A stretch of DNA of 64,000 nt from a phage. The first letter of the stretch is position 1; every line of letters starts with the position of its first letter. The stretch lies in NCBI GenBank assembly GCA_012401045.1, contig GCA_012401045.1_4704.2; one strand, written 5' to 3'. Of this stretch, positions 9,931 to 64,000 are shown in pieces. The position numbers and the translations under genes were made by a program. The notes below the pieces were generated by a model that saw only the letters and a list, made by a program, of their open reading frames with translations, made no database searches and was not told the origin of the DNA.

Positions 9931-9975
9931 GCATAAGCCCTCTCCCAACCCGTAAGGGAAGGGAGAGGGAATATT
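9931..9975 (-). terminator. hairpin of the GCATA-CCCTCTCCC...GGGAGAGGG family
   Basis: Abuts stop of 9974..11341. Confidence 0.55.
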
Positions 9976-11341
9976 AAACGGTTGGACGAACGGTGTTGTC
10001 TTTTTCTGGTGCAAGCCATAACGTGACCGTACCATGGCATGTCCACTGTGGTTCACGTACAGAAGAACCTGCCATTGTAACAGCGCAATCGGTACGCATG
10101 ATAACCCCGTATGCTTCGCAGAGATTGTTATCTTGCATCCACACAACTTTAGCAGGCATGCCGGGATACAACATATCCATGTTTGCGTATTCCCACACCA
10201 ACTGCATTGTTCTACCGCGTAATCCAGCAGTATTACTTAATTCACGCCATCGGTTATCGGTTACGCGTCCCATCCCTTTCGCCACCTTCACGTTATCGCT
10301 ACGTTCTTCAGTTACGTACTCGCTAACGTTTACGGTACGACTGATTATCGTATCACCCCCTTTTGATAACGTCATTCCCTGACTCATCTGACTTGCCGAA
10401 ACAAAACGCCCACCCGCATTACCTAACAACGAAGCCGCGTTATTGATGTCGCTTACCGACGCCCCTCTCGTACATGCAATTTCCACGTATTTGTCACGAT
10501 TGATCCAGGTCTTGTCCATGCCCGGAAACATGTCGGCAGGATAGTTGTAAAAGATAGCCGTGCGCCGACCGTCAGAGAAACGGGTTTCGTCGTAGAGAGG
10601 ATAAATATACAGATACGGAGATTGATAATAACAACCGACATCCGCTGAATAAATACCGACCTGGTTCTGGATTTTGTCTACGAGATCCATTGCGTTGGTG
10701 CCGTGCGGAAGAATAAGCAACTTGAACAGGTTGTCGTTATTCGGTGCAACAATATCCACGCCCTGCATTTTGAACCCGGTGTCGGCTTCAACCGCAGAAA
10801 GTATCTTGCTGAATTCGAGCCGTAACACATCCAGCACTTTCGACCCGGTATAGTTTTCACCGGTTTCTGATTGCATGAAGCTTTCAAGAACAGGATCGAA
10901 CAGTTGAAATTGAAGATCGACCATTTGTTCGTAGTCTTTCTTCGAAGAATCGGTTGCGGTACGTTCGTCGTTAGCAGACATACGACTGTCTACGGTTGTT
11001 AAACAAACCGCTCGGTAGACGTAAGCTTGTGCGGCATCGTCTACGGTTTGGCGTTGTCCGCGCATCAGGCTGTACGCCTGCACGATGATGCGCATTTTAA
11101 GTTGTTGTTGGTACGGTAGAATGTATTTTCCGTAACTGCCGGGCGGGAACTTTACAGAGATATAGAGTTCATCTCCAGCGTTACGTTCATAGTCTCGATA
11201 CGTGTGGACTTGAGTCACTAAAGGAACAGACACCGTCATTGACGGCGTGATTAATTCCGCGGTGACTTTATACGCAACAGCAACTGCTTCCTGCGCAAAT
11301 GTACCGATATACCGTCCTAACGGCGTCTGTTTGTAATCCAT
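9974..11341 (-). CDS. hypothetical protein (455 aa), likely virion-associated
   Basis: Long ORF, stop abuts hairpin terminator; translationally coupled to upstream gene. Confidence 0.7.
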   Translation of the reverse strand: MDYKQTPLGRYIGTFAQEAVAVAYKVTAELITPSMTVSVPLVTQVHTYRDYERNAGDELYISVKFPPGSYGKYILPYQQQLKMRIIVQAYSLMRGQRQTVDDAAQAYVYRAVCLTTVDSRMSANDERTATDSSKKDYEQMVDLQFQLFDPVLESFMQSETGENYTGSKVLDVLRLEFSKILSAVEADTGFKMQGVDIVAPNNDNLFKLLILPHGTNAMDLVDKIQNQVGIYSADVGCYYQSPYLYIYPLYDETRFSDGRRTAIFYNYPADMFPGMDKTWINRDKYVEIACTRGASVSDINNAASLLGNAGGRFVSASQMSQGMTLSKGGDTIISRTVNVSEYVTEERSDNVKVAKGMGRVTDNRWRELSNTAGLRGRTMQLVWEYANMDMLYPGMPAKVVWMQDNNLCEAYGVIMRTDCAVTMAGSSVREPQWTCHGTVTLWLAPEKDNTVRPTV

Positions 11342-21161: not shown

Positions 21162-21209
21162 GCCATAAACCTTCCTCCAACCCAACAGGGAAGGAGGAAG
21201 GGATATGGT
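21162..21209 (-). terminator. hairpin of the CCTTCCTCC...GGAGGAAGG family
   Basis: Downstream of 21212..22501; two further short palindromes at ~21089-21110 and ~21117-21138 in the same spacer. Confidence 0.55.
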
Positions 21210-23867: not shown

Positions 23868-23913
23868 GCATAGAACCCTCTCCCAACCCGTCAGGGAAGG
23901 GAGAGGGGATATG
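23868..23913 (-). terminator. hairpin of the CCCTCTCCC...GGGAGAGGG family
   Basis: Downstream of the highly expressed gene 23930..25252. Confidence 0.55.
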
Positions 23914-32144: not shown

Positions 32145-32189
32145 GCATAACCCTCCTCCAACCCAACAGGGAAGGAGGAGGGAATATGC
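32145..32189. terminator. bidirectional hairpin terminator (CCCTCCTCC...GGAGGAGGG) between convergent genes
   Basis: Located between stop of 29136..32129 (+) and stop of 32192..34984 (-). Confidence 0.6.
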
Positions 32190-49791: not shown

Positions 49792-50664
49792 TTAAACCCG
49801 GGTCAGGTCACCGTGACGTGAAACGAACTCTGATAACGCTCGGGTTGCTTCTTTGGATTCTTCAGCCATCGGGAAGTTTGCGGTAATAAGTTCTCGTAAG
49901 ACAGGGACGAGTTCATTATCTTCGAGATCGGAAGCTAAGGCGAATGCAATCAGTTCTTGGGTGTATGCATACGGTTGCTGACGTAATGCAGTAAGCTGAT
50001 CCCGACACTGCGACATTAGCAGGTCCAGTGGAACCGCTATCGTACCCCCTTCATCAATATACTGGCTGAACACCGGTGGGAACGCATCGCTGATGACACG
50101 AATACGTCGACGAATATGATCCGGAATCTGGACGTTTTCTTCGTCGGCGACGTTTTCGCTATCTTTCTCCAGCTTCTTGGTCAGTACCTGCTGGATACGT
50201 GGGAGCAGGCTTGAATGCACAAAACTGATTAATGATGCTACGTCCACAGCATCGACACCGTAAATATAATGCGCGCATTCCGCTAGCGCTTCAGCTGCGG
50301 TGTAGTCTTCATCTTCAACGATAGCGAGTAGAAAAGCGGTATCGTCGTGTGTTTCCAGGTCTAATAACGTAGACGCTAGCGCATGAAGATATTTCAGGCT
50401 ATCCAGAGTTAGCTGCCCTTCGTTAATTCGGATCCCGAAGGCAAGCAATTGTTGTTTATAAAGTTCGATACATCCGTTTGTTAAAATGATGTCTAATTCG
50501 TTTAAATCGTATTGTTCCCCAGCACCTGACAACATCGTACTGCAGAACGTTTCCAGTTGTTCACATTTAAAATCTTGGTATAAACGATGCATGCAGTGCT
50601 GTAACAGCGTACGCCTTGTTTCAGGGATCTTACCTTCTAACAAAGCCAAGACGGAATCAATCAT
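49792..50664 (-). CDS. hypothetical protein (~290 aa)
   Basis: Track ORF starts at GTG (50670); ATG is codon 3 with GGAG RBS. Confidence 0.65.
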   Translation of the reverse strand: MIDSVLALLEGKIPETRRTLLQHCMHRLYQDFKCEQLETFCSTMLSGAGEQYDLNELDIILTNGCIELYKQQLLAFGIRINEGQLTLDSLKYLHALASTLLDLETHDDTAFLLAIVEDEDYTAAEALAECAHYIYGVDAVDVASLISFVHSSLLPRIQQVLTKKLEKDSENVADEENVQIPDHIRRRIRVISDAFPPVFSQYIDEGGTIAVPLDLLMSQCRDQLTALRQQPYAYTQELIAFALASDLEDNELVPVLRELITANFPMAEESKEATRALSEFVSRHGDLTRV

Positions 50665-50760
50665 ATCCACTCCGATGCGGTAAATGTCTACTAGCTCTCA
50701 TAATCTATTGAAGAAACTACCAGCTTACGCCAACTTAGATTAATCAGGAGTAACCATCCC

Positions 50761-51234
50761 ATGCCAGTTTCATCCAAACCAAGAAAAAAATCCGTAGGAA
50801 ACCCTAAAGCTCAGGAAACAACAGCAATTCGTTGGGACGAGTTACGTGAACCTATCGAAAACTGCGAATTGTTATTGGGTACCCTGGGTGCGGCTATTTA
50901 CCAAGCGACGCAACCCTGTCGTTTACGATTAACCCAAAACAAACGTGATGAGTTCGTTGCGTTATCAACAAGCACGAATAAAGATCTGACCGAACTTCAA
51001 ACCGAGTTGACGACGATCAAGAACTCCATTACGCCGATGTACGGTAAAGAAGTTGATGAACAAAGTATTCTGTTACAGTACAACTACGGGATGTCGTTAA
51101 TGAACATCCTGGAACGCGCATCCGATATTCTGCGTCCTGACGTTGCACGTCTAAGCCAACTGCGTGTCGAAGGGATGGAGAACCAGATCCGATTCGCTAA
51201 CAGTGTTAAATCTCAAGGAGCCACCGAAGCATGA
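50761..51234 (+). CDS. hypothetical protein (157 aa)
   Basis: AGGAG RBS; stop overlaps next start (ATGA). Confidence 0.65.
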   Translation: MPVSSKPRKKSVGNPKAQETTAIRWDELREPIENCELLLGTLGAAIYQATQPCRLRLTQNKRDEFVALSTSTNKDLTELQTELTTIKNSITPMYGKEVDEQSILLQYNYGMSLMNILERASDILRPDVARLSQLRVEGMENQIRFANSVKSQGATEA

Positions 51235-52916
51235 GCGAACAAGAAAAAGAAGTCGTGACGAATCAGGAAGCCGTTGAGCGTTCAGAGTCGTCCGTTGAAA
51301 CTACGATTCCGGCAAGTTCCGAGCCGGTTGGTTCCGCACAGCAGGAAAGTAAAGACGAAGTCAGCACGACTAAAGAAGATGTAGTGGCTCCAGAAGCAAC
51401 CCGTGAAGAAGAACCATCACATCCACCACTAATCGATTTCTCGAAGGCGACGATACGTTTCCAATGCGAAGACATTCGTCCTAAGAGCCCGAAGAAAACA
51501 AAACGCCAGCCGTTGGTGTTACCGCTGTATTCTCCACGTGTGCAGACAACGTATTACCGGGAATACATCAACGAAGCAATGGATACCGTGCAAGCCATTG
51601 TCGCTCAACGCGGTAAACCGACAGACGAACAATTTGATAAATTCAGTAAAGCGGTGGTGCAATCGGTTGCTGATGGACAATATCATCCGCGTGGCCCAGC
51701 TCACGATCGCGCCTTGGAACGTAAGGGCAGTCAGTGGACTAACGTACCCGTAGACTCATCGGGTGTTGGTCGCGTTATTCCTGGCATTCCACAACCGAAC
51801 CATATCCCTGATGATGTCGAAGCGCCGCTGACAGGAACCGATGCGATCTATTTTGCAATCCGCAATACGAAATCAGGTGCGCCTGCGGTAATGCCGTTAT
51901 GGCATAGCGGTATTAAGCTGCAGTTCAATCCGCCGTCAAATGAACGTGTTGCAATTATGCACGAACGTATTGCACGCGATAAAATCCTGGGTGGACGTGA
52001 TAGCACCGGTTTCCTGTTTTCGGCAACCTCGATTATCACCATGAAGCACGCAATCGAATTAGCGTTAGAATGCTGTTACATGGCCAACGTACCGAACCTG
52101 GATATCCAGCGTTTGAAAGACATTATCCCGGTTACCGATGTTCCGGCATTGTTGTTGAACGTGCTGGTAACCATGTATCCGTACGGATATCCTTACGTAC
52201 AGACCTGCTATCAGAATCCAGAAACCTGCGACTATCGTGTTGAAGATACCGTAAGCTTTGCGAAACTCTATCAAGTTGACAACAGCGCAATAACCAAACG
52301 TATGCGACAGATCATGACCGAAGGTCCGGTCATGACGGATGAACTTTTGCGTGAGTATGCAAACGAACTGGGTGAAACAAACTCCCGTACGCTGGATCTG
52401 TCCGACAACGGTTCTGTTATCATTGAACTTGAAGTACCGAAGATCTCACGACAAATAGCCATGGGCGAACGCTGGTTAAGCGATACCCTGGAAGATCTGC
52501 GTGATATTCTATCGCGTCCGTCAATGACCGAAGAAGAGCGTGATCGTGTTATTCGTGAACGTCAGTTTTATAGCTGGATGCGTCAGTATGATGCGTGGAT
52601 CAAATCGATGCACGTGTCAGTAAACGGTACCATGCGTCGTGTAAGCGATGCAGATACGGCAACGGTATTAGCACAGCTGTCACGAGACAGCGACCTTCGT
52701 GAACGTTATATTGACGGGTTGATGCAATTCATCGGTGATTCGACGATTGCGCTCGCAGCGATGCCTGCCTGGAAATGTCCGAAATGTAATGCCGATATTG
52801 CTGACAATCTGCGTGACCAGAAATACTACGATCTGATTGCTTTGGATGTACCCCAGCTTTTTTTTACCCTAAACTCCGTCCAATCTCTTCAGGAGGGGAT
52901 GGACGCGGTATTCTAA
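51231..52916 (+). CDS. hypothetical protein (561 aa); possible -1 frameshift extension into the next ORF
   Basis: AAGGAG RBS. A T8 run at ~52858-52865 sits near the 3' end; the downstream ORF frame is open from 52817. Confidence 0.7.
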   Translation: MSEQEKEVVTNQEAVERSESSVETTIPASSEPVGSAQQESKDEVSTTKEDVVAPEATREEEPSHPPLIDFSKATIRFQCEDIRPKSPKKTKRQPLVLPLYSPRVQTTYYREYINEAMDTVQAIVAQRGKPTDEQFDKFSKAVVQSVADGQYHPRGPAHDRALERKGSQWTNVPVDSSGVGRVIPGIPQPNHIPDDVEAPLTGTDAIYFAIRNTKSGAPAVMPLWHSGIKLQFNPPSNERVAIMHERIARDKILGGRDSTGFLFSATSIITMKHAIELALECCYMANVPNLDIQRLKDIIPVTDVPALLLNVLVTMYPYGYPYVQTCYQNPETCDYRVEDTVSFAKLYQVDNSAITKRMRQIMTEGPVMTDELLREYANELGETNSRTLDLSDNGSVIIELEVPKISRQIAMGERWLSDTLEDLRDILSRPSMTEEERDRVIRERQFYSWMRQYDAWIKSMHVSVNGTMRRVSDADTATVLAQLSRDSDLRERYIDGLMQFIGDSTIALAAMPAWKCPKCNADIADNLRDQKYYDLIALDVPQLFFTLNSVQSLQEGMDAVF

Positions 52917-53008
52917 TCGATCCGCGATACGGGTTACATGACGGACAACTTGTTCGTAATGATGAAAAAATCTGGGAACTGCTGTTAGCGCGTAAAGGCG
53001 ACGGCGGC

Positions 53009-53338
53009 ATGAAGCTGAACATCGAAATGGGTATTGCGTACGATACCATGTTTGGCTTGTACGATCGTGTTAACGAATGGACGCCGTTGAAATGGGTTGC
53101 TCAGCATCCCGCTGAAGATCCCTGGGACAGATTGGGGATTAAACCCTTAATCGAAGATTATGTCCGATTCGGTATTAAAGAGTTCATGACGCTGGATGCG
53201 TTTTTAAAAGCACCGTATCCTTACGCGCAAACGGTACTCAAAATCGCACAAGACGAACTGCGGAAACGTAGTGCGGTACTGGACGACGATGAGGACAAGT
53301 TACGACGAGAAGAAGAACGTTTACGAAACGGAAAATAA
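53009..53338 (+). CDS. hypothetical protein (109 aa) or 3' portion of a frameshift product
   Basis: ATG at 53009 has a weak RBS; its frame is open for ~190 nt upstream, overlapping the end of the 561-aa ORF. Confidence 0.5.
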   Translation: MKLNIEMGIAYDTMFGLYDRVNEWTPLKWVAQHPAEDPWDRLGIKPLIEDYVRFGIKEFMTLDAFLKAPYPYAQTVLKIAQDELRKRSAVLDDDEDKLRREEERLRNGK

Positions 53339-53339
53339 A

Positions 53340-53849
53340 ATGGCAAGATTTACCAGTTTGATTGGATTGGATATTTGGGAAACACCGGCTGACGTTCGGG
53401 TTATTCCTGTTAACACCGTCGGTGTGATGGGACGTGGTCTTGCCAAACAGGCAGCCGATCGTGTGCCCGGTCTTCTTGAAGCGTACCGTAAGCAATGTCA
53501 AGATGGGTTTAAGGTGGGCGAAGTCGTATCGTATCAGCAAGGCGAGAACGATCAGCTCACTTACGTGTTGTTTCCATCAAAATCGGATTGGCGTGAAAGA
53601 ACACGACGCGAGTATATCGTTAACGGTTTACTGGCGTTAAAAGCATGGTTACTGGAGCTTCAGTTCGAAAGAGACGGCTTCTCATATCGGCGTCCGGCTG
53701 AACCGCTGATCGTTGCAATTCCTCCGGTCGGTTCTGGTTGCGGTAATATCGGTTACGGACAATCCGAAACAATCCAGCCTCAATGGGTACGCGCACAAAT
53801 CAAACAGTATCTTGCCACCGTACCAAACGTTCATTTCTACTTGTTCTAA
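53340..53849 (+). CDS. macro-domain-like protein (ADP-ribose binding/processing; ~169 aa)
   Basis: Track ORF 53271..53849; ATG at 53340 directly follows upstream stop. VIPVNTVGVMGRGLAKQAA resembles the macro-domain glycine-rich loop; IPPVGSGCGNIGY resembles its second loop. Confidence 0.5.
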   Translation: MARFTSLIGLDIWETPADVRVIPVNTVGVMGRGLAKQAADRVPGLLEAYRKQCQDGFKVGEVVSYQQGENDQLTYVLFPSKSDWRERTRREYIVNGLLALKAWLLELQFERDGFSYRRPAEPLIVAIPPVGSGCGNIGYGQSETIQPQWVRAQIKQYLATVPNVHFYLF

Positions 53850-53859
53850 TGCAAAGGTA

Positions 53860-53905
53860 ACATAACCCTCCTCCAACCCGTAAGGGAAGGAGGAGGGCTT
53901 ATGCT
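53860..53905. terminator. bidirectional hairpin (CCCTCCTCC aacccgtaaggg AAGGAGGAGGG) between convergent genes
   Basis: Between stop of macro-domain gene (+) and stop of 53907..54281 (-). Confidence 0.6.
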
Positions 53906-53906
53906 G

Positions 53907-54281
53907 TTAATGTTCGTTCCAGATGGCATCTTCCGGTGGAACAATAGGATCTTTCTTCGGCATTGACGGTACTTCATGACGATGCTTACGGAATTGCCTA
54001 TCGATAACCTCACGAAGCCGGTACGCATCAACCCATGTTGATTTATTGAACAGCTCCAATGTCACAGTTAATCGTGTTCTTGACATTGAATAGCTTTTCT
54101 TTGCAATCAAATTGGGATAATTCAGTTGAGCGAACCACGCACGTATTTGTGCTTCGGTAAAAGCGATGCTGTAATAACTAAGTTTACCGTCATTAAAATC
54201 GTGCGCGTGGGTGTAACGTCCAGCGTAACGCCAGACAAGATGCACATTCAGATCGATCCATGGTGGGGTGGTATCAGCCAT
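53907..54281 (-). CDS. hypothetical protein (124 aa)
   Basis: GAGGG RBS; hairpin terminator after stop. Confidence 0.6.
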   Translation of the reverse strand: MADTTPPWIDLNVHLVWRYAGRYTHAHDFNDGKLSYYSIAFTEAQIRAWFAQLNYPNLIAKKSYSMSRTRLTVTLELFNKSTWVDAYRLREVIDRQFRKHRHEVPSMPKKDPIVPPEDAIWNEH

Positions 54282-54290
54282 GTGTTACCC

Positions 54291-54860
54291 TCAACGATTC
54301 TTCATCACTTTACCCAGGCTTTCGATATTATCCCAAAAGCGATTTTTACTTGGCGCATCGCCGACGATAACCGACATCAAATCACGACGTTCGCGACTGA
54401 TGATGCCTTGTGATTTCCAGATCACCATCGTCCAGCAAGCGGCCAGAACGAACAGATGGTTAATGCTCGGTTTGGTTTGCGCGATGAACGCAAGCCATGC
54501 CCAGATACCGGTGTATACTAGCGTCACTAAAAAGAGCGAGATTGTTGCAACGACAACAACGAAGTTTTGGACAGCGGGTTGATTAGCGTTATCATGAATA
54601 GCGGTAAGATCAGGAAGATTACCTTCAACTGAACTCGTTTCATCGATTTCCAATTCTTCGATTTCTTTTCGTGTGTCAGGAGCTAATCCAGCATCATCGA
54701 GATGCTTTTTTAACCGCTGTATGCTTAATCGTTGACCGACAGGAATGTTGATGTTGTCGTAACTATTAAGCGCATCAACCAGGGAGCGTCCATCAACGAG
54801 AACCAAGCTCGCGGTACCCATCGTTTGCGGTTTTATTTTGTAAAGGTCTTTTACTTTCAT
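54291..54860 (-). CDS. predicted integral membrane protein (189 aa; two TM helices)
   Basis: Hydrophobic segments VVVVATISLFLVTLVYTGIWAWLAFIA and LFVLAACWTMVIW; immediately downstream of tailspike gene. Confidence 0.6.
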   Translation of the reverse strand: MKVKDLYKIKPQTMGTASLVLVDGRSLVDALNSYDNINIPVGQRLSIQRLKKHLDDAGLAPDTRKEIEELEIDETSSVEGNLPDLTAIHDNANQPAVQNFVVVVATISLFLVTLVYTGIWAWLAFIAQTKPSINHLFVLAACWTMVIWKSQGIISRERRDLMSVIVGDAPSKNRFWDNIESLGKVMKNR

Positions 54861-54881
54861 GTAGACACCACCTCCAACGTG

Positions 54882-57494
54882 TTAAGCGTCCGGCGTAAAA
54901 TCAAAAGGAATGTCCGTACGAATGATACCATAACGTTTTCCGAGGAAATAAAACTCTTCGGGAACCTGACCGGGAATAATGCTATCACCGATGAACTGCG
55001 GATACGCCCAGATGTACTGAGTGAGTCCTTCGAACATATCCAGGTTATTTGCGTGGTTACCCATGATACGTTTCCAGAGTTCGCGTTTATACGGCGTTTT
55101 AACATCGAAACCATAAAGCGGTGCAAGATCTTCACCAGGAACAAATCCCAGGTAATAGTGAATCTGACTAACCGGGAAACCAAGCGTATCTCGCGGAATG
55201 GTGATCGCTTGCTCAGCTTTGGTGACATGCGTTTCAATAATCCAGTCGTAACACTCTGAATAGAACCGATCGAATTTCTCTGGATTATACCATGCTTTGG
55301 GAAGATTCAGTTTCTCCGTGAACGCATTCGACATGATCGTCGGTAAGAACGGAAGAACACCGGTTTTGATCTGCGTGTATTTCGATTTTACCCGGTTAAC
55401 CAAATTCCAGCAACTGTATCCTAACTGTTCGTTACAAAACTCAACGTAGAGATCGTAATCACCGCCGGATAATGGGTTGTTGATATCACCAATGTCTGCA
55501 GCGTATTTGTTGGGATATCGGTTATTGAAAGCCAGTTTGGTTTGGTAATCGTAGATACACGGTTTGTTGTTCGCTGTATTGATCCACCACCAGGGTTCAC
55601 CCACCTGTACACAAATGTCCTGGACATGAGGGTAAATAATATCGGCAAACGCGGTTAACACATCCCCTAACCACGCCATCGCCTGTTGGTTACATGGAGA
55701 CAGCAACCAGGACGGTGGTGTATATCCGGTTGCTGCGATGTTTCCTTCCCAATCCTGCTGCGCCCACTCGAACGGGCAGGCTGTACTCATCAATTCGTAA
55801 CTTAAACTGATGGTGACAGAGAAATGGTGTTTTGCAGCATATGCGGCGAAAGCTTCATGCCACGCGATACAGGGTGGATTTAATACATCCGTGGTGTTCA
55901 CCAGTAACTTACCCGCACTTGGCGTCCAGACAGTATCGTAGAAATGCGACATTCCAACATAATGCACTAATTCATCTTGATACCCCGCATAAACCAGGTT
56001 CTCAAATACACGCTCTGGCGTGATGTTGTAATGGTCATCGTAAGCGGTTATCGCACGAAGTTCGTGTGGTGTACAGTGGTGACGATTAACCGTCATTTCC
56101 TGATACACCCCATCGATAGGAAGAATCTCGAGGGTTAAACCGAGGTCGATTGGCGTTTCCAGATAGGTCGTTTCAGTCGCACCTTCCTTATAATGTCGAG
56201 AACTCATGCTGAACATCAACGATGCTACCGATTCGAGTTCGATAGGTTCGTCAGCATAGAACCCCGCCATTGCGTCATTGAAATCGATCGTTACGATTGC
56301 GCTTCTACCGTCTTCAGAGACATCGGTGGCGTATCGGGTTAATGAGATATACTGACGGCTATCGTCTTTGTGTACGACGGTTAAAACCGGCGGGTTTTCG
56401 GTATCTGCAAAGTTACGCTGATCGCCAGTAAACGTGATCTTCGCTTTAAAGATCAAACCGAATAACGACGTCATGGGATCATACGCAATACAACCGTGAT
56501 CCAGCGTATCCGTTGTCCGCCATTCTATCCCGACCAACCCGTTAGCGGTATGGCATCGCATATACGCATTAAGGACCATGTCTTCACTGACAACCGCGAA
56601 GTTCTCTGTTGACTGACCGTTGATAATCCAATACATCGGTTGCCAGAGGTTACGCGTACCTTTTGCGTAGCGGTAGGTTGGTGCGCCTTTAGGGTTGCCG
56701 TTATTGAGATGGAATACGGCAGTACCTTGATAATGGTCGTTCGTATTAATCGGAACACTGTAAGCGTCACCGAGGTCCGTACGTTCCACCTTCGTGACCG
56801 TTGCGTTTTCAAATAACCCACGCAACGCTGGTAAACCGATATCTTCAGGCGCGTTTTCTCGACGAATCGCATCCGCGATGCGATGGGCTAAGGCGGGGTA
56901 AATAGCTTCACCCTGTTGTAGGTTTGCAAGACCTACAAAGCGATCAGGGTCGATACCAGCAATCAATAACTCAACATCACCCTTCGTTCTATCGTCGTTA
57001 AGATATTTCAGTCCGGTAAGGTCAAGATGCTGAATAAGCGACAACAGGTTGTATTTACGGTTTTCAACAGTTAGTACAAGATCGCCTGCCCAAACCAAAC
57101 TTCCCTCATCCGCTGTTACTTTAACGGATTGTCGGCCTGTGGTAGACGTTGTTGTCGTTTTATTTAATTGTCCTTGTAGGAAGTCGGTTGCGAGGTCAAA
57201 GGCAATACCGTAACGGTCAGCGACCGCTTGCATGATTTCACGTAACTGGGTATCTTCTTCAATGATAATCTTGACAGGTATTCCCAAGAACGCTTTAGCA
57301 AGGTCTCGTTTAACCAACGAGACGAATACGGATTTGTAGTATCGGCTTCCATCTTTCCCTTTAAAAAGAATGGAGGTTGTTTCGGGTGCCGATAGAACAC
57401 GTGCAAATACAACATCGTCGGAAGTAAGAGAAAGTCCGTTTTTCTCGTTGACCAATCTTAGTATTTCATTTTGCGCGGTTTCATGTAACTTCAT
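54882..57494 (-). CDS. putative tailspike/receptor-binding protein (870 aa) with N-terminal anchor domain
   Basis: N-terminal ~170 aa homologous to 63370..63897 (RDLAKAFLGIPVKII block); Trp-rich C-terminal region (GEPWWW); lies in tail fibre module. Confidence 0.55.
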   Translation of the reverse strand: MKLHETAQNEILRLVNEKNGLSLTSDDVVFARVLSAPETTSILFKGKDGSRYYKSVFVSLVKRDLAKAFLGIPVKIIIEEDTQLREIMQAVADRYGIAFDLATDFLQGQLNKTTTTSTTGRQSVKVTADEGSLVWAGDLVLTVENRKYNLLSLIQHLDLTGLKYLNDDRTKGDVELLIAGIDPDRFVGLANLQQGEAIYPALAHRIADAIRRENAPEDIGLPALRGLFENATVTKVERTDLGDAYSVPINTNDHYQGTAVFHLNNGNPKGAPTYRYAKGTRNLWQPMYWIINGQSTENFAVVSEDMVLNAYMRCHTANGLVGIEWRTTDTLDHGCIAYDPMTSLFGLIFKAKITFTGDQRNFADTENPPVLTVVHKDDSRQYISLTRYATDVSEDGRSAIVTIDFNDAMAGFYADEPIELESVASLMFSMSSRHYKEGATETTYLETPIDLGLTLEILPIDGVYQEMTVNRHHCTPHELRAITAYDDHYNITPERVFENLVYAGYQDELVHYVGMSHFYDTVWTPSAGKLLVNTTDVLNPPCIAWHEAFAAYAAKHHFSVTISLSYELMSTACPFEWAQQDWEGNIAATGYTPPSWLLSPCNQQAMAWLGDVLTAFADIIYPHVQDICVQVGEPWWWINTANNKPCIYDYQTKLAFNNRYPNKYAADIGDINNPLSGGDYDLYVEFCNEQLGYSCWNLVNRVKSKYTQIKTGVLPFLPTIMSNAFTEKLNLPKAWYNPEKFDRFYSECYDWIIETHVTKAEQAITIPRDTLGFPVSQIHYYLGFVPGEDLAPLYGFDVKTPYKRELWKRIMGNHANNLDMFEGLTQYIWAYPQFIGDSIIPGQVPEEFYFLGKRYGIIRTDIPFDFTPDA

Positions 57495-57516
57495 TAAAAA
57501 CCTCAGCCCTTTAGAA

Positions 57517-58158
57517 TTAAATGTACTGCTTACCGCCCACGAAGGAAGTTAACCAGTTCCCGCTGACGAGTTGTGATACCCAGCCTGGAACGGCTCTACC
57601 ATTCTGGCTCATGATGTTACCACACCAACCAGGGAATCCGGGACGGATGTAATAGAAAGTTAAATTGTAGAGATGGCAATTCCATACCGCAACGTTATGT
57701 TTACCAGAAACCGCTTTAAAGACAAACGCGACAGGTAACGGAGACGATAACAATTCGGTCACAGGGACGGCTGACCAGTTCGCATTCGCGTTCCATGGTT
57801 GCCAGGTATGGCTGCGCGAGTCGCAATATACGTTACCGTTGTTACCGCGCCCACCCGCATTCCACCACAGCGACGGACTCATGTTCTTAAGTGAGGTAAA
57901 TTGCTGCGGTGGAATATTCGGAATGATAACAGGGTTGGTGCCTTGTCCATGTTTCTTTTCTTTTGCGTTCACATAGCCGTTTATCGATTCGAGGTATTTG
58001 GTACCAGGATAATTGTTCTGGACTTGTGTCGCAATATCACGAACGTCGAACGTCCAGCAGATCATGGTGTTGTAGTAAGCATCGGTGTTGTCGTACCATG
58101 CGTTACCATCTTGTAAACGTGCACCACTATTCGGTGTTTTATCTGTGCTTATAGCCAT
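57517..58158 (-). CDS. hypothetical protein (213 aa), paralog of 58261..58917; fibre-module accessory protein
   Basis: Shares PGFPGW[AC]GN[IV]MSQNGRAVPGW[AV]SQLVSGNWLTSFVGGK C-terminus and HGQ...VPNIP block with neighbour. Confidence 0.65.
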   Translation of the reverse strand: MAISTDKTPNSGARLQDGNAWYDNTDAYYNTMICWTFDVRDIATQVQNNYPGTKYLESINGYVNAKEKKHGQGTNPVIIPNIPPQQFTSLKNMSPSLWWNAGGRGNNGNVYCDSRSHTWQPWNANANWSAVPVTELLSSPLPVAFVFKAVSGKHNVAVWNCHLYNLTFYYIRPGFPGWCGNIMSQNGRAVPGWVSQLVSGNWLTSFVGGKQYI

Positions 58159-58260
58159 GGTGTTGTCCTATACGTTGGTGGTTGAGGTGGCGGATATCGG
58201 ATGCGTGTTGTCGTCAGGTAATACATACAGAAACGCCCACTGATAAAACAGCAGCTTCTT

Positions 58261-58917
58261 TTAAATTGAATTTAGATATCGCTTACCACCAACAAACGAC
58301 GTCAACCAGTTCCCTGAAACAAGCTGCGAAGCCCAGCCAGGCACTGCCCTACCGTTCTGACTCATCACGTTACCTGCCCATCCCGGAAAACCTGGTACCA
58401 TTTCGTATATATTGAACGATTCTATCTGGAACGAACCAAGCTTAACGTAGTGCGTTGTTGATCGGTACTTAAATTCAATAATAACAAAGAACGGATGTGA
58501 TTGTAAGTCGGACATTCTAATAGGTGCCGAGAGATTACCCGCCGACCATGGTTTCCACGTATGCTTACGGCTATCACAGTCAATATTACCCATTGAACCG
58601 TTAGCTGACGCGTTCCAGAATAGCTTATAGTCATACGCGGCGACATCGCCACTCCATCCTTGGAGAGGTATATTTGGTACATATACCCCGTTATTCCATT
58701 GTCCGTGTTGAATTTCTTCAGCATCGCCATGCCCAGAGACATATTCTAAGTACGCGTTTGGGTGTCTAGCGACGACTTCTCGCGCAAAAGAACGCAAGTC
58801 AAAAAGATGGGCGACAATGCTGTTATTATAAGCCACTCTCCAGCCGGGATCACGCCACCCTAATTTGCCGTCAGCGTGCCTTCTAGACGTGAACCCTATA
58901 GTTCGCGCTATTGCCAT
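58261..58917 (-). CDS. hypothetical protein (~218 aa), paralog of 57517..58158
   Basis: Track ORF extends to 58968 inside a hairpin; internal ATG (codon 18) has GAGG RBS and aligns with the paralog N-terminus (MAI...). Confidence 0.6.
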   Translation of the reverse strand: MAIARTIGFTSRRHADGKLGWRDPGWRVAYNNSIVAHLFDLRSFAREVVARHPNAYLEYVSGHGDAEEIQHGQWNNGVYVPNIPLQGWSGDVAAYDYKLFWNASANGSMGNIDCDSRKHTWKPWSAGNLSAPIRMSDLQSHPFFVIIEFKYRSTTHYVKLGSFQIESFNIYEMVPGFPGWAGNVMSQNGRAVPGWASQLVSGNWLTSFVGGKRYLNSI

Positions 58918-58963
58918 TTTATACCTCGTTCCTATTCTCAAAAAGGAAATTTCATACGATGAC

Positions 58964-59006
58964 GCCATAGCAGCTCCTCCAACCCGTCAGGGAAGGAGGA
59001 GCATAC
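58964..59006 (-). terminator. hairpin (GCTCCTCC aacccgtcaggg AAGGAGGAGC) downstream of lipoprotein gene
   Basis: Loop sequence identical or near-identical to other family members. Confidence 0.55.
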
Positions 59007-59010
59007 TTAA

Positions 59011-59517
59011 TTACTTACTGATAACCTCAACGGAGTTGGGATCAGCGATCAATGCACGGTCGGTAGAACAATTGAAGAAGACCATCCCAACACCATCGCC
59101 GTTCGAGTTCAGGGTTGAACTTGCGTAAGACAATGTTGGTTTATTCATGCGGTAGAAGCGTTCGCTGGTTGCGGTATTGAACCCCAGGTCAACGTAGTCT
59201 TTCACCGTGGTATACAACTGGGTGGACTCGAAAACGGTTACCGGAGAGTCAACGGTAAATTGACTACCTTCGTCCACAACCAGAACTTTATCGTTCCAGA
59301 TTTCAGTGGTTGAGAACTTCGGTTTCCAATGTTCGAATTCCTGGGTTGCACCCCAGCAAGAATACACAGCGAGATTGCTGTTCTTCTCGACTGGTTTCAA
59401 ACCCACCAGTTGCGTCAGGTCTTTATCCAGGTTCGGTAAACCTTCCAGCGTAGCACACCCACCCAGAGAAAGCACCATCAACATACCAAGAACGATCGCA
59501 CAAAGTTTCTTCATCAT
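59011..59517 (-). CDS. predicted outer-membrane lipoprotein (168 aa)
   Basis: N-terminal MMKKLCAIVLGMLMVLSLGGC: signal peptide with lipobox-like LGGC, Ala at +2. AAGGA RBS. Sits between tail fibre gene and fibre-module paralogs. Confidence 0.6.
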   Translation of the reverse strand: MMKKLCAIVLGMLMVLSLGGCATLEGLPNLDKDLTQLVGLKPVEKNSNLAVYSCWGATQEFEHWKPKFSTTEIWNDKVLVVDEGSQFTVDSPVTVFESTQLYTTVKDYVDLGFNTATSERFYRMNKPTLSYASSTLNSNGDGVGMVFFNCSTDRALIADPNSVEVISK

Positions 59518-59565
59518 TAGATTTCCTTATGTGTTAACGGAAGTGACTTCCATAAGGATTGATGA

Positions 59566-62500
59566 TTACTTTTTGAGCGCTTTAAGTTCTTCTTCCATCG
59601 CTTCCACTTTTGCCGTAAGCTTCTGTACTTGTTTGATTAATGGAACCACCAAACGTTCGTACATAACACCTTCGGCGACGAGTCCGTTAGAAGAAACGAT
59701 AGCGGGGTCATCTTCTTCGGTTGCATCACGCCAATGCACGTATTGTGGTGCGATCTCACCAACCTCTTCGGCAATCAACCCATACCAACCCCAATCCTTG
59801 TTGTCGGCTTCGCAGGTAGAACGATACCAGACAGGACGCATCTCCAATACTTTATCCGCTTGTTCATCCGTGATATTCTCGATATCTTTCTTATAGCGCC
59901 GCGACGACGTTGAACGAAACACATTGTTGATCCCAGCAGTAGGACTGATATACATATTAGCCCCGCTGGTTGTAGTGCTAATGTCCCATACCGCAAATCC
60001 GCCGTTACTCCCATTTCTCACGACCAACGTATTGGCAATAATATCCAGGTTATTGTTGTAACCGGTTAACTGGTTTTCGGTGACAAAATCGGATAAGTTA
60101 ACGGAGTAGTTCTTGCTGTTATAACAACGACGCCATCCTGGGCTGTTGGTGCTGCCATTATAGTTGTCGTAGCTATAAATGAACTCGGAGTTGGTTTTCG
60201 CACCACTGACGGAAGACGTGGTTGCGGTGGTAACACGGATAGTGTAGTTCGTCATCCCGAAGCTAACGACCTCGATAACCGCACCAGCCAGAGGAATAAT
60301 ACCACATTTGGTTTCACTGTCTGGGATGTATGCGCTATCGGCAGCAGCGAAGGAGCAACGTGCGACCCAGGCACGGGTATTGAATGCACCTTGGTTCTGT
60401 AATAACGTAATAAACGATGAGGTCGTAATCGAGCTGTTATTATCACCTGTGATCAACCAGCCGGTTGGACATGCGGTAGCACCAACGTTTTTCGCTGTTA
60501 GCGTGATGTTCTTCGATCCGTCGAAGGCTACGCCGCTGATGGTACGTGCAGTCTGTAGCTTCGTCGCCGTTGCCGCGTTCCCTGATGTGTTCTGGTTCCC
60601 TGCCGCATTAACACCAGGCAGATTGATGTTCGCACTACCGTCGAAAGACACCCCGCCAATGGTGCGGGCTGTTTTCAGTTTTGTCGCCGTGGCGGCATTA
60701 CCGGTTGTGTCTTGGTTACCGGTGGTGTTTACCCCAGGTAGATTGATATTTGCCGTTCCGTTAAATGAAACGCCGCCAATCGTCCTTGCCGTTTGCAACT
60801 TCGTTGCAGATGCCGCATTCCCCGTGGTGTTTTGGTTGCCTGTTGTATTCACACCCGGGATACTATCCTTAGATGTGTAGATCTGTGCCCATTCCGACCA
60901 TTTCGCATCGGTTGAATCACGACGTGAACGTAGGTAAGCTGGAGCGTGTGCACCCGAGGTACCTGACCATCCAATGAGGATTTCACCTTCGCCGACCGAT
61001 GAAGCGCCTTTAAGATGAACAACGTTACCGTAGGCTGTAGGGTATCCGTTATTGTACGCTTCATACATCTGGATACCCGTATTGCTGCCCTGGGTCGCAT
61101 TAGCTAAAGCGGTGACCCGTCCCTTGGAAGCGAGCACGTTAATGCTAAAGCTAATATCGGTTGTACCGTCAAAGGCGACCCCATTAATCCTCCGCGCTGT
61201 TTGGAGTTTCGTGGCAGTAGCCGCATTACCAGAGGTACTCTGATTGCCTGCTTTGTTCACACCTGGTAAATCAATGTTGGCGGTTCCATCAAAGGACACG
61301 CCCCCTATGGTTCTCGCCGTCTGAAGTTTTGTTGCTGAACCAGCGTTTCCGGAAGTGCTTTGATTACCCGCCGCGTTGACACCTGGTAGGTTAATGCTAG
61401 CAGAACCATCAAAAGAAACTCCACCGATCGTAATAGCTGTTCGCAACTTCGTGGCTGTCGCAGCGTTACCCGTCGTATTCTGATTACCAGCTGCATTGAC
61501 GCCAGGTAATGCGATATCAGCTGTGCCATCGAACGCGACACCTCCGATTTTACGGGCGGTTTGTAGCTTGGTTGCTGTAGCAGCATTACCGCTGGTATTT
61601 TGCGTACCGGCTTTATTTACACCAGGAAGATCGATGTTAGCAGAACCATCGAAGCTGACGCCACCTATCGTTCTTGCAGTAGCAAGTTTAGCGGCTGTAG
61701 CAGCGACGTTACCGACTTTTAACCATTCTCCCCATGGACCATCCACACCGTTCCATGATGCCGTTAAACTGCGCACGTATATGTTTCCTGTACGTACTGT
61801 GTAACGTTGTGTTCCACCGAATTGACCGGCTGGGAGCACTTCGATGTAACCTACAGCATTTGCTTCAGGGAAATTGTGGGCAGCATCGGCATTCGTTGAT
61901 GTTTGTTTGGACCAAATACCCACAGACGCTTCAACCGGACCGTAGGTATCCAGATTTGCATCGGTGGGGAGCTGTCCTCGAAAACGTCGGAATAATGAAG
62001 CCGATAACCCCAACGTTGTTTGCATCCCTTCAATGCTTGACTGCGATAGAAGCGCCCGAGCTGTCGACGTGATGGCCGCTAAAGCAACCTTATCCGTACC
62101 GGTAAAAAACGGGAATTTGTTTGCTGATGTTGCTAAACCTGAAAGGGCGGTCAGTAATGCGTTAAGGGGTTGTTTCCCGGCTAGCGCGTTAGTCACAGTC
62201 GTTGCAAAGTTTGGATCATTACCTAACGCTTGAGCTAACTCGTTAAGCGTATTTAGCGCTTCTGGAGACGAGTCGATCAGCGACGCGATAGCACGCATCA
62301 CAAATTCCGTGTTGGCGATCTGTTGACTGCTATCGTTCTCTGCAGCCGTAGGTGCTGCTGGGATACCGGTGAACACAGGGTTATTAAGATCCGCCTTAAG
62401 GGCGATGAGACGTCTAAGTGCTTCAACATCGACTTTCAGGTTTTCCCATCCGACGAGATAACCATCACCGGTTGTGTGATAACGGTTGTACCAAAAATCG

Positions 62501-63363
62501 CCATTAACGCCAAAATAAAATATTCCCTTCTCTTCGTATTGTGGGCCAGAACTGTTCCGTGATGAGCTAATGTATTTTATTTCGATAAGGCCGTTGAATA
62601 CCACTCCTGGGATTATTTTGTTGTCTCCAGCTGACTGTGATACCTGGTAAATCCCCGGGGTTGCGGCTTTAACCCACGTTAAGAATTCTGTTACTCCAGC
62701 GGTACCGCTGAAATTCTTAACGTCGGTAAGTATTGCCCCATAACCGAACATACCGGGTAGAGCCACTCGTCCGCTGGTACGGTCACGAATATCTGTTGCA
62801 ACAACAGGTAATTGTTTACGAACGGCATTAACCGCTTTAGGTGTGGCCGATTTTGTCTCGTCGTCGCTATCGGTTTCATTACTTAGAATAGTTAAACCGC
62901 GTGTAGCAGTAGTTGCATCAGGAAGAAATGCGTTATCCAACACCTTAAGCTGTACTGCACTCGTATTACTAACAACGACATGCACTTGACAGTTAAGAAC
63001 GCTGGTTGCGCCTTCGGTAGGCGTAGGCTTATATCTTTCTGGTGCACTGCAGACGGCAATCAGAACACCTTGGTCATCGTACAGACCGATCTCACGTACC
63101 CAGAACCCACCTTGACCAGCAGGAATAATACCCTCAACGATAATCCTGGTTGTGCTATCACCATCCGCATGGATATTAGAAACTTCCCCACGATAAACTT
63201 CGTGAACAAGCGCTGTTTGGCTGGCGGTCGGGGTTGGGATCGAGCCGTTACCATCACCAACGGCAAAGTGTGTGATTTTTAGTTTCTCACCGTCGGGAAG
63301 TAACGCGGCGGTGATACGTTCTGCTCCTTTATCGGTAACTACCGTTATATATGCTGTACTCAT
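59566..63363 (-). CDS. tail fibre protein (1265 aa) with tandem ~40-aa fibre repeats and C-terminal S74-type intramolecular chaperone domain
   Basis: N-terminus resembles tail-fibre N-terminal domains (ITHFAVGDGNG...WVREIGLYD). At least eight repeats of NAATATKLQTARTIGGVSFDGSANINLPGVN. C-terminal SSRRYKKDIENI...WYGLIAEEV matches the S74 chaperone domain pattern. Confidence 0.8.
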   Translation of the reverse strand: MSTAYITVVTDKGAERITAALLPDGEKLKITHFAVGDGNGSIPTPTASQTALVHEVYRGEVSNIHADGDSTTRIIVEGIIPAGQGGFWVREIGLYDDQGVLIAVCSAPERYKPTPTEGATSVLNCQVHVVVSNTSAVQLKVLDNAFLPDATTATRGLTILSNETDSDDETKSATPKAVNAVRKQLPVVATDIRDRTSGRVALPGMFGYGAILTDVKNFSGTAGVTEFLTWVKAATPGIYQVSQSAGDNKIIPGVVFNGLIEIKYISSSRNSSGPQYEEKGIFYFGVNGDFWYNRYHTTGDGYLVGWENLKVDVEALRRLIALKADLNNPVFTGIPAAPTAAENDSSQQIANTEFVMRAIASLIDSSPEALNTLNELAQALGNDPNFATTVTNALAGKQPLNALLTALSGLATSANKFPFFTGTDKVALAAITSTARALLSQSSIEGMQTTLGLSASLFRRFRGQLPTDANLDTYGPVEASVGIWSKQTSTNADAAHNFPEANAVGYIEVLPAGQFGGTQRYTVRTGNIYVRSLTASWNGVDGPWGEWLKVGNVAATAAKLATARTIGGVSFDGSANIDLPGVNKAGTQNTSGNAATATKLQTARKIGGVAFDGTADIALPGVNAAGNQNTTGNAATATKLRTAITIGGVSFDGSASINLPGVNAAGNQSTSGNAGSATKLQTARTIGGVSFDGTANIDLPGVNKAGNQSTSGNAATATKLQTARRINGVAFDGTTDISFSINVLASKGRVTALANATQGSNTGIQMYEAYNNGYPTAYGNVVHLKGASSVGEGEILIGWSGTSGAHAPAYLRSRRDSTDAKWSEWAQIYTSKDSIPGVNTTGNQNTTGNAASATKLQTARTIGGVSFNGTANINLPGVNTTGNQDTTGNAATATKLKTARTIGGVSFDGSANINLPGVNAAGNQNTSGNAATATKLQTARTISGVAFDGSKNITLTAKNVGATACPTGWLITGDNNSSITTSSFITLLQNQGAFNTRAWVARCSFAAADSAYIPDSETKCGIIPLAGAVIEVVSFGMTNYTIRVTTATTSSVSGAKTNSEFIYSYDNYNGSTNSPGWRRCYNSKNYSVNLSDFVTENQLTGYNNNLDIIANTLVVRNGSNGGFAVWDISTTTSGANMYISPTAGINNVFRSTSSRRYKKDIENITDEQADKVLEMRPVWYRSTCEADNKDWGWYGLIAEEVGEIAPQYVHWRDATEEDDPAIVSSNGLVAEGVMYERLVVPLIKQVQKLTAKVEAMEEELKALKK
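60470..61700 (-). repeat. tandem ~120-bp repeats encoding the 40-aa tail-fibre repeats, in two blocks split by a non-repeat insert
   Basis: Antisense track ORFs 60308..60880, 61052..61243 and 61496..61804 show the mirrored periodic peptide pattern. Confidence 0.7.
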
Positions 63364-63369
63364 GGTGTT

Positions 63370-63897
63370 TTATCCTGGATAAATAGTGATGATATCACCA
63401 ATGACAGTTGTGGCACCGGCGTAAAGATGAGCCGGAGATACATCGTGTTGGTTTGTCACAGTAAGATCCAATCGACCACGCCAAACCATGGAGGTATTTG
63501 CGATGGGGATAGAAATCTTTTTGGATATATCGTCACGAAAATCAATAACAGTGGCAAGGGTAACCGCATCAAAGTCAACGTCGGGGTCAAAGACGAACCC
63601 GTATTGATCTGAAATCGCCCGAATAATCGCATGTATAGTTGTTGTCTCAACGGACTCTAAAACGATTTTTACCGGTATTCCTAAAAATGCCTTCGCGATA
63701 TCGCGTCGAGCGTAAACGATAAAACTTTCACCACACCACTTTGTTCCTTCATTTGCTGTGACGATCACTTTTGCCCTGTTAGCACCAGAACTCCCATCCA
63801 AGGTTAATGTAAGATCGGAGTTGCTGAACACGCTACTGTTACGTCTGTTTATCAACGACGTCAGTTCGTCTTTCCATGGCGGGTAAAGTGAACGCAT
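63370..63897 (-). CDS. fibre-anchor-domain protein (~175 aa), homolog of N-terminus of 54882..57494
   Basis: Track ORF starts at TTG (63918); ATG is codon 8 with GGAGGAGGG 11 nt upstream. RRDIAKAFLGIPVKIV block. Same frame as the downstream fibre gene, separated by TAA plus two codons. Confidence 0.6.
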   Translation of the reverse strand: MRSLYPPWKDELTSLINRRNSSVFSNSDLTLTLDGSSGANRAKVIVTANEGTKWCGESFIVYARRDIAKAFLGIPVKIVLESVETTTIHAIIRAISDQYGFVFDPDVDFDAVTLATVIDFRDDISKKISIPIANTSMVWRGRLDLTVTNQHDVSPAHLYAGATTVIGDIITIYPG

Positions 63898-64000
63898 AAG
63901 CGCACCCTCCTCCAACAATCAAATTAAATTGTAAAACGCCTCGAGACCAAAGTGTGATTCGAGGTAAACGTAAACAGTCTTAACGACCGCATAAAATTCC

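Follow-up and report, generated by a model that had tools for sequence, protein, structure and literature searches.

A predicted outer-membrane lipoprotein of Goslar-like jumbo phages, encoded at the conserved flank of an exchangeable tail-fibre tip

The gene considered here lies in a 64,000-nucleotide stretch of phage DNA (NCBI GenBank assembly GCA_012401045.1, contig GCA_012401045.1_4704.2), referred to below as the window. It occupies positions 59011..59517 on the minus strand and encodes a predicted lipoprotein precursor of 168 residues. Around this gene, the window shares 94-96% DNA identity with Escherichia phage vB_EcoM_Goslar, a nucleus-forming jumbo phage of the Goslarvirus group, with a genome of 237 kb and an annotation full of references to phiKZ-like phages. 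Local alignment shows the two to be collinear over window positions 50002-58210, 58877-59554 and 62093-64000, and by these alignments the window phage is a Goslar-like jumbo phage of E. coli. The Goslar-type genomes compared are those of the window, of Goslar, and of two IMG/VR contigs, L007 and L008; contig L019, with a lipoprotein 86% identical to that of the window, was added to this set. The other loci compared are L004, L005 and L018, together with those of phages SPN3US, SPAsTU, Kwan, phiEaH2, ChrisDB and Huxley. The full genomes of Goslar and SPN3US were reassembled from annotated records and scanned in six frames for lipoprotein signals.

The lipoprotein gene, a member of phrog_9559, is the ortholog of Goslar_00088 (gp88), annotated as a hypothetical protein and 99% identical in amino-acid sequence. 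It starts 48 nucleotides (nt) past the stop codon of a long tail-fibre gene of 1265 codons (59566..63363, minus strand), and a Shine-Dalgarno sequence, AAGGA (59525..59529, minus strand), is found 7 nt before its first ATG. The product begins MMKKLCAIVLGMLMVLSLGGC|ATLEG...; its N-terminus is also given as MMKKLCAIVLGMLMVLSLGGCATLEG. The signal peptide (residues 1-20, MMKKLCAIVLGMLMVLSLGG; 59458..59517, minus strand) is composed of an n-region positively charged at K3 and K4, a 14-residue h-region with a mean Kyte-Doolittle hydropathy of about 2.2, and the LGG of an LGGC lipobox that ends on Cys21, with Ala at position +2 (MMKK / LCAIVLGMLMVLSL / LGGC). The criterion applied to lipoboxes was [LVI][ASTVIG][GAS]C, with the cysteine at about position 15-35, after a charged n-region and a hydrophobic h-region. 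The window protein passes both lipobox pattern scans, which also recognise lambda Rz1. A sequence-only reading of this DNA had proposed a lipoprotein with an LGGC lipobox and Ala at +2, equipped with its own ribosome-binding site and placed directly downstream of the tail-fibre gene. Each of these features is present as described, the signal being conserved across homologs and the position within the fibre module being kept in 12 phage contexts (see below).

The assignment as a lipoprotein draws on conservation in six close and five distant metagenomic homologs, SPN3US gp159, Kwan gp173, and further Erwinia and Salmonella phage proteins. The signal peptide and lipobox are kept in every homolog found. 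An alignment of 13 sequences, with identities as low as ~25%, shows Cys21 in every one, and in a 16-sequence alignment it is missing only from P0025, the partial product of a 471-nt contig. The +2 residue, Ala in the window protein, may be Ala, Ser, Lys or Val across homologs and is Asp in none. Since Asp is never found at +2, the established sorting rule of Enterobacterales predicts a Lol-dependent transfer to the outer membrane, as had been anticipated from the window protein. In a lipobox scan of the whole Goslar genome, gp88 is the only credible lipoprotein. The signal exceeds what chance would provide, because the cysteine is invariant, because the ratio of nonsynonymous to synonymous substitution rates (dN/dS) is 0.01-0.09 among the four Goslar-type genomes, and because gp88 is the sole credible lipoprotein of Goslar. 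On these grounds, the gene is real and its product very probably a lipoprotein.

Selection on the gene is also visible in the raw differences: among the four Goslar-type genomes, it differs at 8-25 of 501 nt, yet at only 1-4 amino acids, all confined to residue 162 or the signal peptide. When the window phage is compared with phages of the SPN3US/Erwinia type, the lipoprotein retains 28-35% identity and the major capsid protein 25-28%. An exhaustive HMMER profile search of 1.84 billion representative sequences gave 15 matches, of which the credible ones are phage proteins of 130-190 residues; it returned no bacterial homolog with a known function. The long, multi-stretch matches of the same search (P0007, P0012, P0014, P0015, P0017 and P0018) were set aside, as they look spurious or repeat-driven. 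Complete E. coli genomes yielded no match by megablast, and a scan of IMG/VR with a narrow alignment recovered Goslar-type contigs only. Members of the family were seen in jumbo phages of enterobacteria and nowhere else. Of the 230 phage records in which the major capsid protein occurs, 55 contain the lipoprotein, all from phages of Escherichia, Salmonella, Erwinia or Proteus. The lipoprotein was not detected in several lineages with a capsid protein closer to that of the window phage, such as Ea35-70, Proteus phage 10 and Eowyn. Judging from this distribution, the gene is accessory, patchy and linked to the host clade, yet very strongly constrained once present.

The mature protein (Cys21-Lys168; 59014..59457, minus strand) is predicted to consist of a low-confidence tether of ~30 residues followed by an all-β barrel (residues ~50-151). 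The AlphaFold2 model, which needed the 16-sequence alignment (seven close sequences gave a predicted local distance difference test score, pLDDT, of 36), reaches a pLDDT of 78.7 and a predicted template modelling score of 0.74, and displays ten β-strands after the tether. Besides the lipobox cysteine, Cys54 and Cys150 are invariant across the family. They probably form a disulfide bridge, and the presence of two invariant extra cysteines fits with an oxidising, extracytoplasmic location. Five polar residues, D82, S98, R120, Y122 and R123, are invariant as well. The only hydrophobic segment of the precursor covers residues 4-22, the C-terminus (...DRALIADPNSVEVISK) is polar, and proline makes up 4% of the mature part. 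Searches of Pfam, NCBIfam and PADLOC gave no match for the window protein or for the 16 family members, even at E<=10, and the sole PHROGs match is phrog_9559, of unknown function. A profile search of the PDB with the family gave insignificant matches only, and Foldseek found no significant match to the model in the PDB. Against viral models, Foldseek recovers the family itself (Kwan, Huxley and SEGD1), whose Kwan and Huxley members bear the UniProt name "Lipoprotein", and gives weaker matches to small phage lipoproteins of DIBBI, Possum and Joad, of unknown function. As modelled, the fold is that of a generic tethered β-barrel, and it assigns no function.

The fibre protein encoded upstream possesses a Phage_tail_fib N-terminus, repeats, and a C-terminal intramolecular chaperone of the Peptidase_S74 family. 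Its gene is preceded by that of a small DUF7941 protein of 182 residues (63370..63918, minus strand). The fibre ends differently in each relative. In Goslar, a glycine-rich domain is followed by a separate Caudo_TAP assembly protein (Tfa); L008 displays a third type of end; and L019, where the lipoprotein is the 86% identical one, harbors a DUF4376 chaperone. In L007, which has Tfa, no ~4-kb long-fibre gene is found, and the DUF7941 gene runs straight into the assembly gene. This absence (IMGVR_UViG_3300045988_173921, positions 3871-4843) may be a natural deletion or an assembly artefact.

Homology between the window and Goslar, L007 or L008 breaks at the same place in all three comparisons, at 59554..59559, past the fibre stop codon and ahead of the Shine-Dalgarno sequence that serves the lipoprotein gene. 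To the right of this breakpoint, the fibre C-terminus (59560-60493) is unlike those of the three relatives, and this end, which includes Peptidase_S74, is unique to the window phage among the Goslar-type genomes compared. To the left, the lipoprotein gene is 94-97% identical. The window, Goslar and L008 encode the same mature lipoprotein, from which that of L007 departs at one residue. These alignments indicate a clear exchange of fibre-tip cassettes in a jumbo phage, in which the lipoprotein gene, as mapped by the breakpoint, is the conserved flank where the cassettes swap and stays outside the cassette itself. The sequence-only reading had envisaged receptor specificity and exclusion linked in one exchangeable cassette, with co-variation between the lipoprotein and the fibre C-terminus as a check. 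This idea fails, because different fibre ends are found with a near-identical lipoprotein and the break falls upstream of the ribosome-binding site of the latter. The co-variation is absent: four fibre ends, one of them a fibre-less Tfa, accompany a near-identical mature lipoprotein, and the breakpoint separates the two genes.

A wider survey reveals what the lipoprotein gene does keep company with. Despite inversions and gene turnover, it lies inside or at the border of a cluster of DUF7941 and tail-fibre genes in 12 of 12 phage contexts. Several large tail proteins in the window begin with DUF7941, for which the PHROGs label is virion structural protein, and every related phage examined has DUF7941 genes flanking the lipoprotein gene. 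In Goslar, L007, L008 and L019, the lipoprotein gene comes after the long fibre or the chaperone of the fibre. In L004 and L005, whose lipoproteins are 49% identical to that of the window, and in the most divergent locus, L018, it ends a run of genes for large DUF7941-bearing proteins. In SPN3US, SPAsTU, Kwan, phiEaH2, ChrisDB and Huxley, it is solitary and on the opposite strand, always divergent from a gp160-type DUF7941 gene accompanied by one to three more tandem paralogs. A block made of a GH108 endolysin, a tiny open reading frame (ORF) and a DUF1353 protein stands on one side of the lipoprotein gene in four of these six phages and on the other side in the two Machinavirus genomes among them. 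As this block switches sides, the linkage that withstands rearrangement is the one to the DUF7941/fibre cluster and not to the endolysin.

In the six SPN3US-type and Erwinia phages, a motif, TTATATGAC (TAGTATGAC in Kwan), is found ~40-60 nt upstream of the lipoprotein start (L002 ~7845, L015 ~4845, L016 ~4837, L014 ~4869, L017 ~4878 and L003 ~7841), and it is nearly absent from the rest of these loci. It is likely a phage promoter element, and it may resemble the TATG late-promoter motif of phiKZ.

The lipoprotein might also be expected to serve as the outer-membrane subunit of a spanin (o-spanin), a role that the sequence-only reading had already doubted for want of an adjacent inner-membrane subunit (i-spanin) or endolysin. 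Neither adjoins the gene in the window, and the doubt holds well beyond it. No i-spanin partner, with an N-terminal transmembrane domain (TMD) and a helical periplasmic domain, adjoins or overlaps the lipoprotein gene in the 12 contexts. The neighbours are fibre or chaperone, gp87-like, DUF7941, M15-like and DUF1353 proteins, all lacking an N-terminal TMD; L004 has, downstream, a gene for a 188-residue ortholog of a 189-residue membrane protein of the window (see below), with central TMDs. A unimolecular spanin of the T1 gp11 type is not indicated either, because the lipoprotein has no C-terminal transmembrane segment. Furthermore, the six-frame scan of SPN3US yields two lipoprotein signals, those of gp159, the ortholog of the window protein, and of gp205. 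The latter possesses an LLTGC lipobox and a Pro-rich mature N-terminus, and starts 9 nt after gp204, a protein of 156 residues that has a transmembrane helix at its N-terminus, followed by a helical segment and a Pro-rich tail. The pair (180017-180976; L025 34018-34977) is unannotated, and PHROGs lists both proteins as of unknown function; its layout suggests a "separated" two-component spanin architecture. As SPN3US owns gp204/gp205, gp159 is not needed as an o-spanin, which by orthology makes a spanin role unlikely for the family as a whole.

The situation in Goslar is less simple, as the scans found no other o-spanin candidate and no canonical spanin pair in this phage. Kongari et al. reported overlapped two-component spanins in phiKZ, 201phi2-1, EL and Ea35-70 (PMC6139136 and its supplement), and the phiKZ-type relatives listed in that supplement have lipoprotein o-spanins of 100-167 residues. 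Homologs of the Ea35-70 i-spanin, of the 201phi2-1 o-spanin and of the SPN3US lysis-region proteins were sought in Goslar and the window, and none was found. An embedded 39-residue lipobox ORF in Goslar_00152 was rejected as a hidden o-spanin, gp152 being devoid of a TMD and the ORF of a ribosome-binding site. Outside the window, 10-14 kb from the lipoprotein gene, a cluster of exported and membrane proteins is found at Goslar 108183-113409 (L010 1183-6409). It includes gp98, a SleB-like hydrolase with an N-terminal signal sequence, gp100 with about four transmembrane segments, gp101 with two, gp94, whose N-terminus forms a TMD, and gp103 and gp104, each carrying a cleavable signal peptide. 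None of its members is a lipoprotein or can be recognised as a spanin. From its composition, this cluster is probably the lysis module.

Immediately after the lipoprotein stop codon stands a hairpin (58969..59007, minus strand; dG -27.9 kcal/mol, z -4.5). Its 28-nt core, CTCCTCCTTCCCTKACGGGTTGGAGGAG, occurs seven times in the window (6558-6585, 9940-9967, 21172-21199, 23878-23905, 32153-32180, 53868-53895 and 58974-59001), each time on the minus strand and a few nt after a stop codon. Some copies show compensatory stem variants (CTCTCCC/GGGAGAG and TTCCTCC/GGAGGAA), and the copies have no U-tract; their 3' arm carries GGAGG, and the ATG of the next gene comes 5-6 nt later. In the copy after the lipoprotein gene, the 3' arm, GGAGGAG, is the Shine-Dalgarno sequence of an ATG at 58968. 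Goslar harbors eleven copies, some of which its depositors annotated as putative terminators. The hairpin terminator attributed earlier to the lipoprotein gene is therefore present as a hairpin, and its function as a terminator is plausible but unproven, given the missing U-tract, a terminator consensus scan that does not call it, and the annotation in Goslar. The lipoprotein gene thus ends at a phage-specific punctuation element, one of an intergenic hairpin family spread across the phage genome. The hairpin family could act as a terminator, as an RNA-processing site or as a translational gate of the next gene. The hairpin centre, TTCCCTGACGGGTT, is inverted between the window (58974-59001) and Goslar (97886-97913; L001 ~10300-10327), with collinear flanks. 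As aligned, this difference is a small inversion between the arms of the inverted repeat.

The ATG at 58968 opens a gene of 235 codons (58261..58968, minus strand), directly downstream of the lipoprotein gene, whose product is a paralog (47% identity) of that of the following gene. Positions 58211-58876 form an insertion in the window, absent from Goslar, L007 and L008. The following gene (213 codons; 57517..58158, minus strand) is the ortholog of Goslar gp87 and belongs to a fast-evolving family: the gp87-like protein of L019 is only 38% identical, where the lipoprotein is 86% identical. This family, for which no match was found in Pfam, PHROGs, NCBIfam or PADLOC, retains a near-invariant C-terminal stretch of ~45 residues (PGFPGW...GNWLTSFVGGK) and may be a host-range or tail-tip component. 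Next comes a protein of 870 residues (54882..57494, minus strand) that harbors DUF7941, NCTSP_N and TIM-barrel domains, the last two belonging to "non-contractile tail sheath protein" Pfam families. Its domains make it a candidate for a second tail protein with a receptor-binding or enzymatic role in this contractile-tailed jumbo phage. The array ends with a membrane protein of 189 residues (54291..54860), a protein of 124 residues (53907..54281) and another copy of the hairpin (53868..53895), all on the minus strand. Both proteins are conserved near the lipoprotein region in L004 and L005. The hydrophobic segments of the 189-residue protein are central, and it is also found in PCH45, PhiEaH1 and Serratia or Klebsiella jumbo phages devoid of the lipoprotein; this differing phyletic distribution rules it out as an obligate partner of the lipoprotein.

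What the lipoprotein is can be stated with far more assurance than what it does. Sequence, conservation and structural model together make it highly probable that the precursor is exported by Sec, lipidated at Cys21, cleaved by signal peptidase II and, following the established lipoprotein rules, sorted by Lol to the outer membrane, where a flexible tether of ~30 residues would hold a small, disulfide-locked β-barrel in the periplasm. The barrel would then bind a conserved component of the enterobacterial envelope needed after the initial binding of the fibre, for example a secondary receptor or the site or enzymes of tail penetration, and the receptor bound by the neighbouring, variable long fibre would not be masked. 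The lipoprotein would block superinfection and/or keep the progeny from being wasted on the debris of lysed cells. In Goslar-type phages, its gene would probably be co-transcribed with the fibre gene, the transcript ending at the conserved hairpin; in SPN3US-type phages, it stands apart and is divergently transcribed, with a conserved motif of its own upstream. We tentatively regard such an envelope-level exclusion or protection factor, with a target constant across fibre variants, as the likeliest single reading of the locus, one that is inferred only. It is favoured because of the linkage to adsorption genes, the analogy with Llp of phage T5, and the exclusion of a spanin role.

A bolder version is rather unlikely. 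It holds that the protein, a conserved tethered barrel unrelated to Llp or Cor, is the first factor for exclusion or protection at the envelope in nucleus-forming jumbo phages, acting after fibre binding, or else a restraint on the phage's own Sec-exported cell-wall hydrolase. The step acted upon after binding would be one shared by this phage group, for example penetration by the tail, the work of the muralytic enzymes it carries, or the delivery of injected material. Either variant would explain why the lipoprotein stays constant while fibre cassettes swap.

Several points weigh against the proposed exclusion function. The mature lipoprotein co-varies neither with the fibre tip nor with the fast-evolving downstream gene. 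Searches of family libraries and the PDB, together with Foldseek and hhalign, reveal no sequence or fold similarity to Llp, to Cor or to any named family. The probable late co-transcription with the fibre gene would be less than ideal for blocking early superinfection. In SPN3US-type phages, the GH108 endolysin is located only two to three genes from the lipoprotein gene. Finally, the divergence of the lipoprotein, being no greater than that of the capsid protein, would fit a housekeeping role in the envelope at least as well as an arms-race exclusion function.

Some other periplasmic or envelope role, unconnected with exclusion or lysis, for example as a ligand-binding barrel of the lipocalin or YceI kind, as a modulator of envelope stress or vesiculation, or as a counter-defence against a host system located in the envelope, comes close behind the favoured reading in likelihood and is just as tentative. 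The very strong purifying selection and the capsid-like conservation speak for it, the five invariant polar residues could form a ligand site, and the lipoproteins of DIBBI, Possum and Joad are structurally similar; no result, however, points to a ligand or a partner, and the persistent linkage to the DUF7941/fibre cluster would be left unexplained. Largely refuted by the co-variation check, and highly improbable, is an Llp-like factor hiding the receptor of the adjacent fibre and moving with its receptor-binding end as one cassette. The lipoprotein gene is indeed directly downstream of the fibre gene, and in T5 the gene for Llp, too, adjoins that of the receptor-binding protein. Against this stand the differing fibre ends with their identical or near-identical mature lipoproteins, the homology breakpoint between the two genes, the SPN3US-type lipoprotein genes that do not adjoin a long fibre gene, and a similarity to Llp confined to the 17 residues of signal peptide.

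The two remaining explanations turn to the cell wall and to lysis. A part in lysis, as the outer half of a spanin or as another late outer-membrane disruptor or lysis regulator, is very unlikely. The missing inner-membrane partner (none is N-terminally anchored and adjoining or overlapping in the 12 contexts), the missing C-terminal transmembrane segment, the folded and Pro-poor mature part, the separate spanin-like gp204/gp205 that SPN3US has besides its gp159 ortholog, the dissimilarity to phiKZ-type spanins and the distance of 10-14 kb to the likely Goslar lysis cluster (gp98, gp100 and gp101) all argue against it. It would nevertheless account for the sole lipoprotein of a phage, Goslar, in which no canonical spanin pair was found, and it agrees with the o-spanins of 100-167 residues of phiKZ-type relatives (PMC6139136 supplement), with a probable late expression alongside structural genes, and with the proximity, at two to three genes, of the GH108 endolysin and tiny membrane ORFs in SPN3US-type phages. 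The nearness of this endolysin also speaks for the other explanation. The lipoprotein would in that case be an inhibitor of peptidoglycan hydrolases, a barrel of the MliC/PliC kind anchored in the outer membrane and directed against the tail lysozymes of incoming phages, in a Spackle-like exclusion that would prevent lysis from without, or against a muralytic enzyme that the phage itself exports through Sec. MliC, too, is an outer-membrane lipoprotein, with an 8-stranded barrel, and the fold predicted for the window protein is compatible with such an inhibitor but not diagnostic. Goslar gp98 and SPN3US gp198, both muralytic enzymes with N-terminal signal sequences, are possible targets, and lysis from without is on record for SPN3US (PMC5105663). 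Foldseek found no significant match in the PDB, however, Pfam gave none even at E<=10 with the MliC model included, and the candidate target enzymes belong to different families from phage to phage, whereas the lipoprotein is conserved; inhibition of this kind is unlikely.

Should the lipoprotein prove to be an exclusion factor, it would represent a new structural class and point to a conserved envelope target, which would be relevant to the design of jumbo-phage cocktails. How giant nucleus-forming phages handle the envelope after infection, be it superinfection, lysis from without or the loss of progeny on debris, is essentially undescribed. The literature yielded nothing relevant on SPN3US gp159, on Goslar spanins or on exclusion lipoproteins of jumbo phages, and no functional study of the family; a 2026 review of jumbo-phage biology mentions neither spanins, nor superinfection exclusion, nor lipoproteins. 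The family offers a single, small and easily expressed candidate at the border of a hypervariable receptor-binding cassette. Databases already list it, as a PHROG without a name, and no sign of an unusual mechanism has emerged to date. For annotation, the locus corrects a common shortcut, since a lipoprotein encoded beside a fibre gene need not be matched to the receptor of that fibre.

Among known systems, o-spanins (lambda Rz1, T4 PseT.2 and those of phiKZ-type phages, PMC6139136) resemble the window protein in being outer-membrane lipoproteins of lytic phages, of 100-170 residues and with conserved cysteines. They differ in that the window gene has no adjacent i-spanin and encodes a folded, Pro-poor barrel without homology to the phiKZ-type proteins. 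The MliC, PliC, PhiA and ACP inhibitors differ as well, with no sequence-family match and a fold match no better than that to unrelated barrels. T4 Spackle, soluble and periplasmic, brings about exclusion by inhibiting gp5, the tail lysozyme. It offers a possible functional analogy only, that of a periplasmic phage protein acting after adsorption: Spackle is not a lipoprotein, and PDB sequence and fold searches with the window protein gave no such match.

The closest parallels in placement are the exclusion lipoproteins. T5 llp, labelled "Cor superinfection exclusion protein" in NC_005859, adjoins oad and diverges from it, as SPN3US gp159 does from gp160. Like the window protein, Llp is a phage lipoprotein with a classical lipobox, encoded beside receptor-recognition genes. 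Its precursor, however, is 78 residues long against 168, and hhalign of the family profile aligns 17 signal-peptide columns only, the mature domains being dissimilar. The window protein is a predicted tethered barrel that does not co-vary with the neighbouring fibre tip. Llp inactivates FhuA. The Cor family of T1, phi80, N15 and related siphophages comprises exclusion lipoproteins of the outer membrane, whose genes lie within or beside the region for tail fibres or host specificity. The window protein is, by prediction, also an outer-membrane lipoprotein at a tail-fibre region; it differs in matching phrog_9559 only, with no Pfam or NCBIfam match, and in belonging to a nucleus-forming jumbo myophage. 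Outside the Llp and Cor families as judged by homology and co-variation, the lipoprotein is nonetheless placed in its genome as these exclusion lipoproteins are in theirs.

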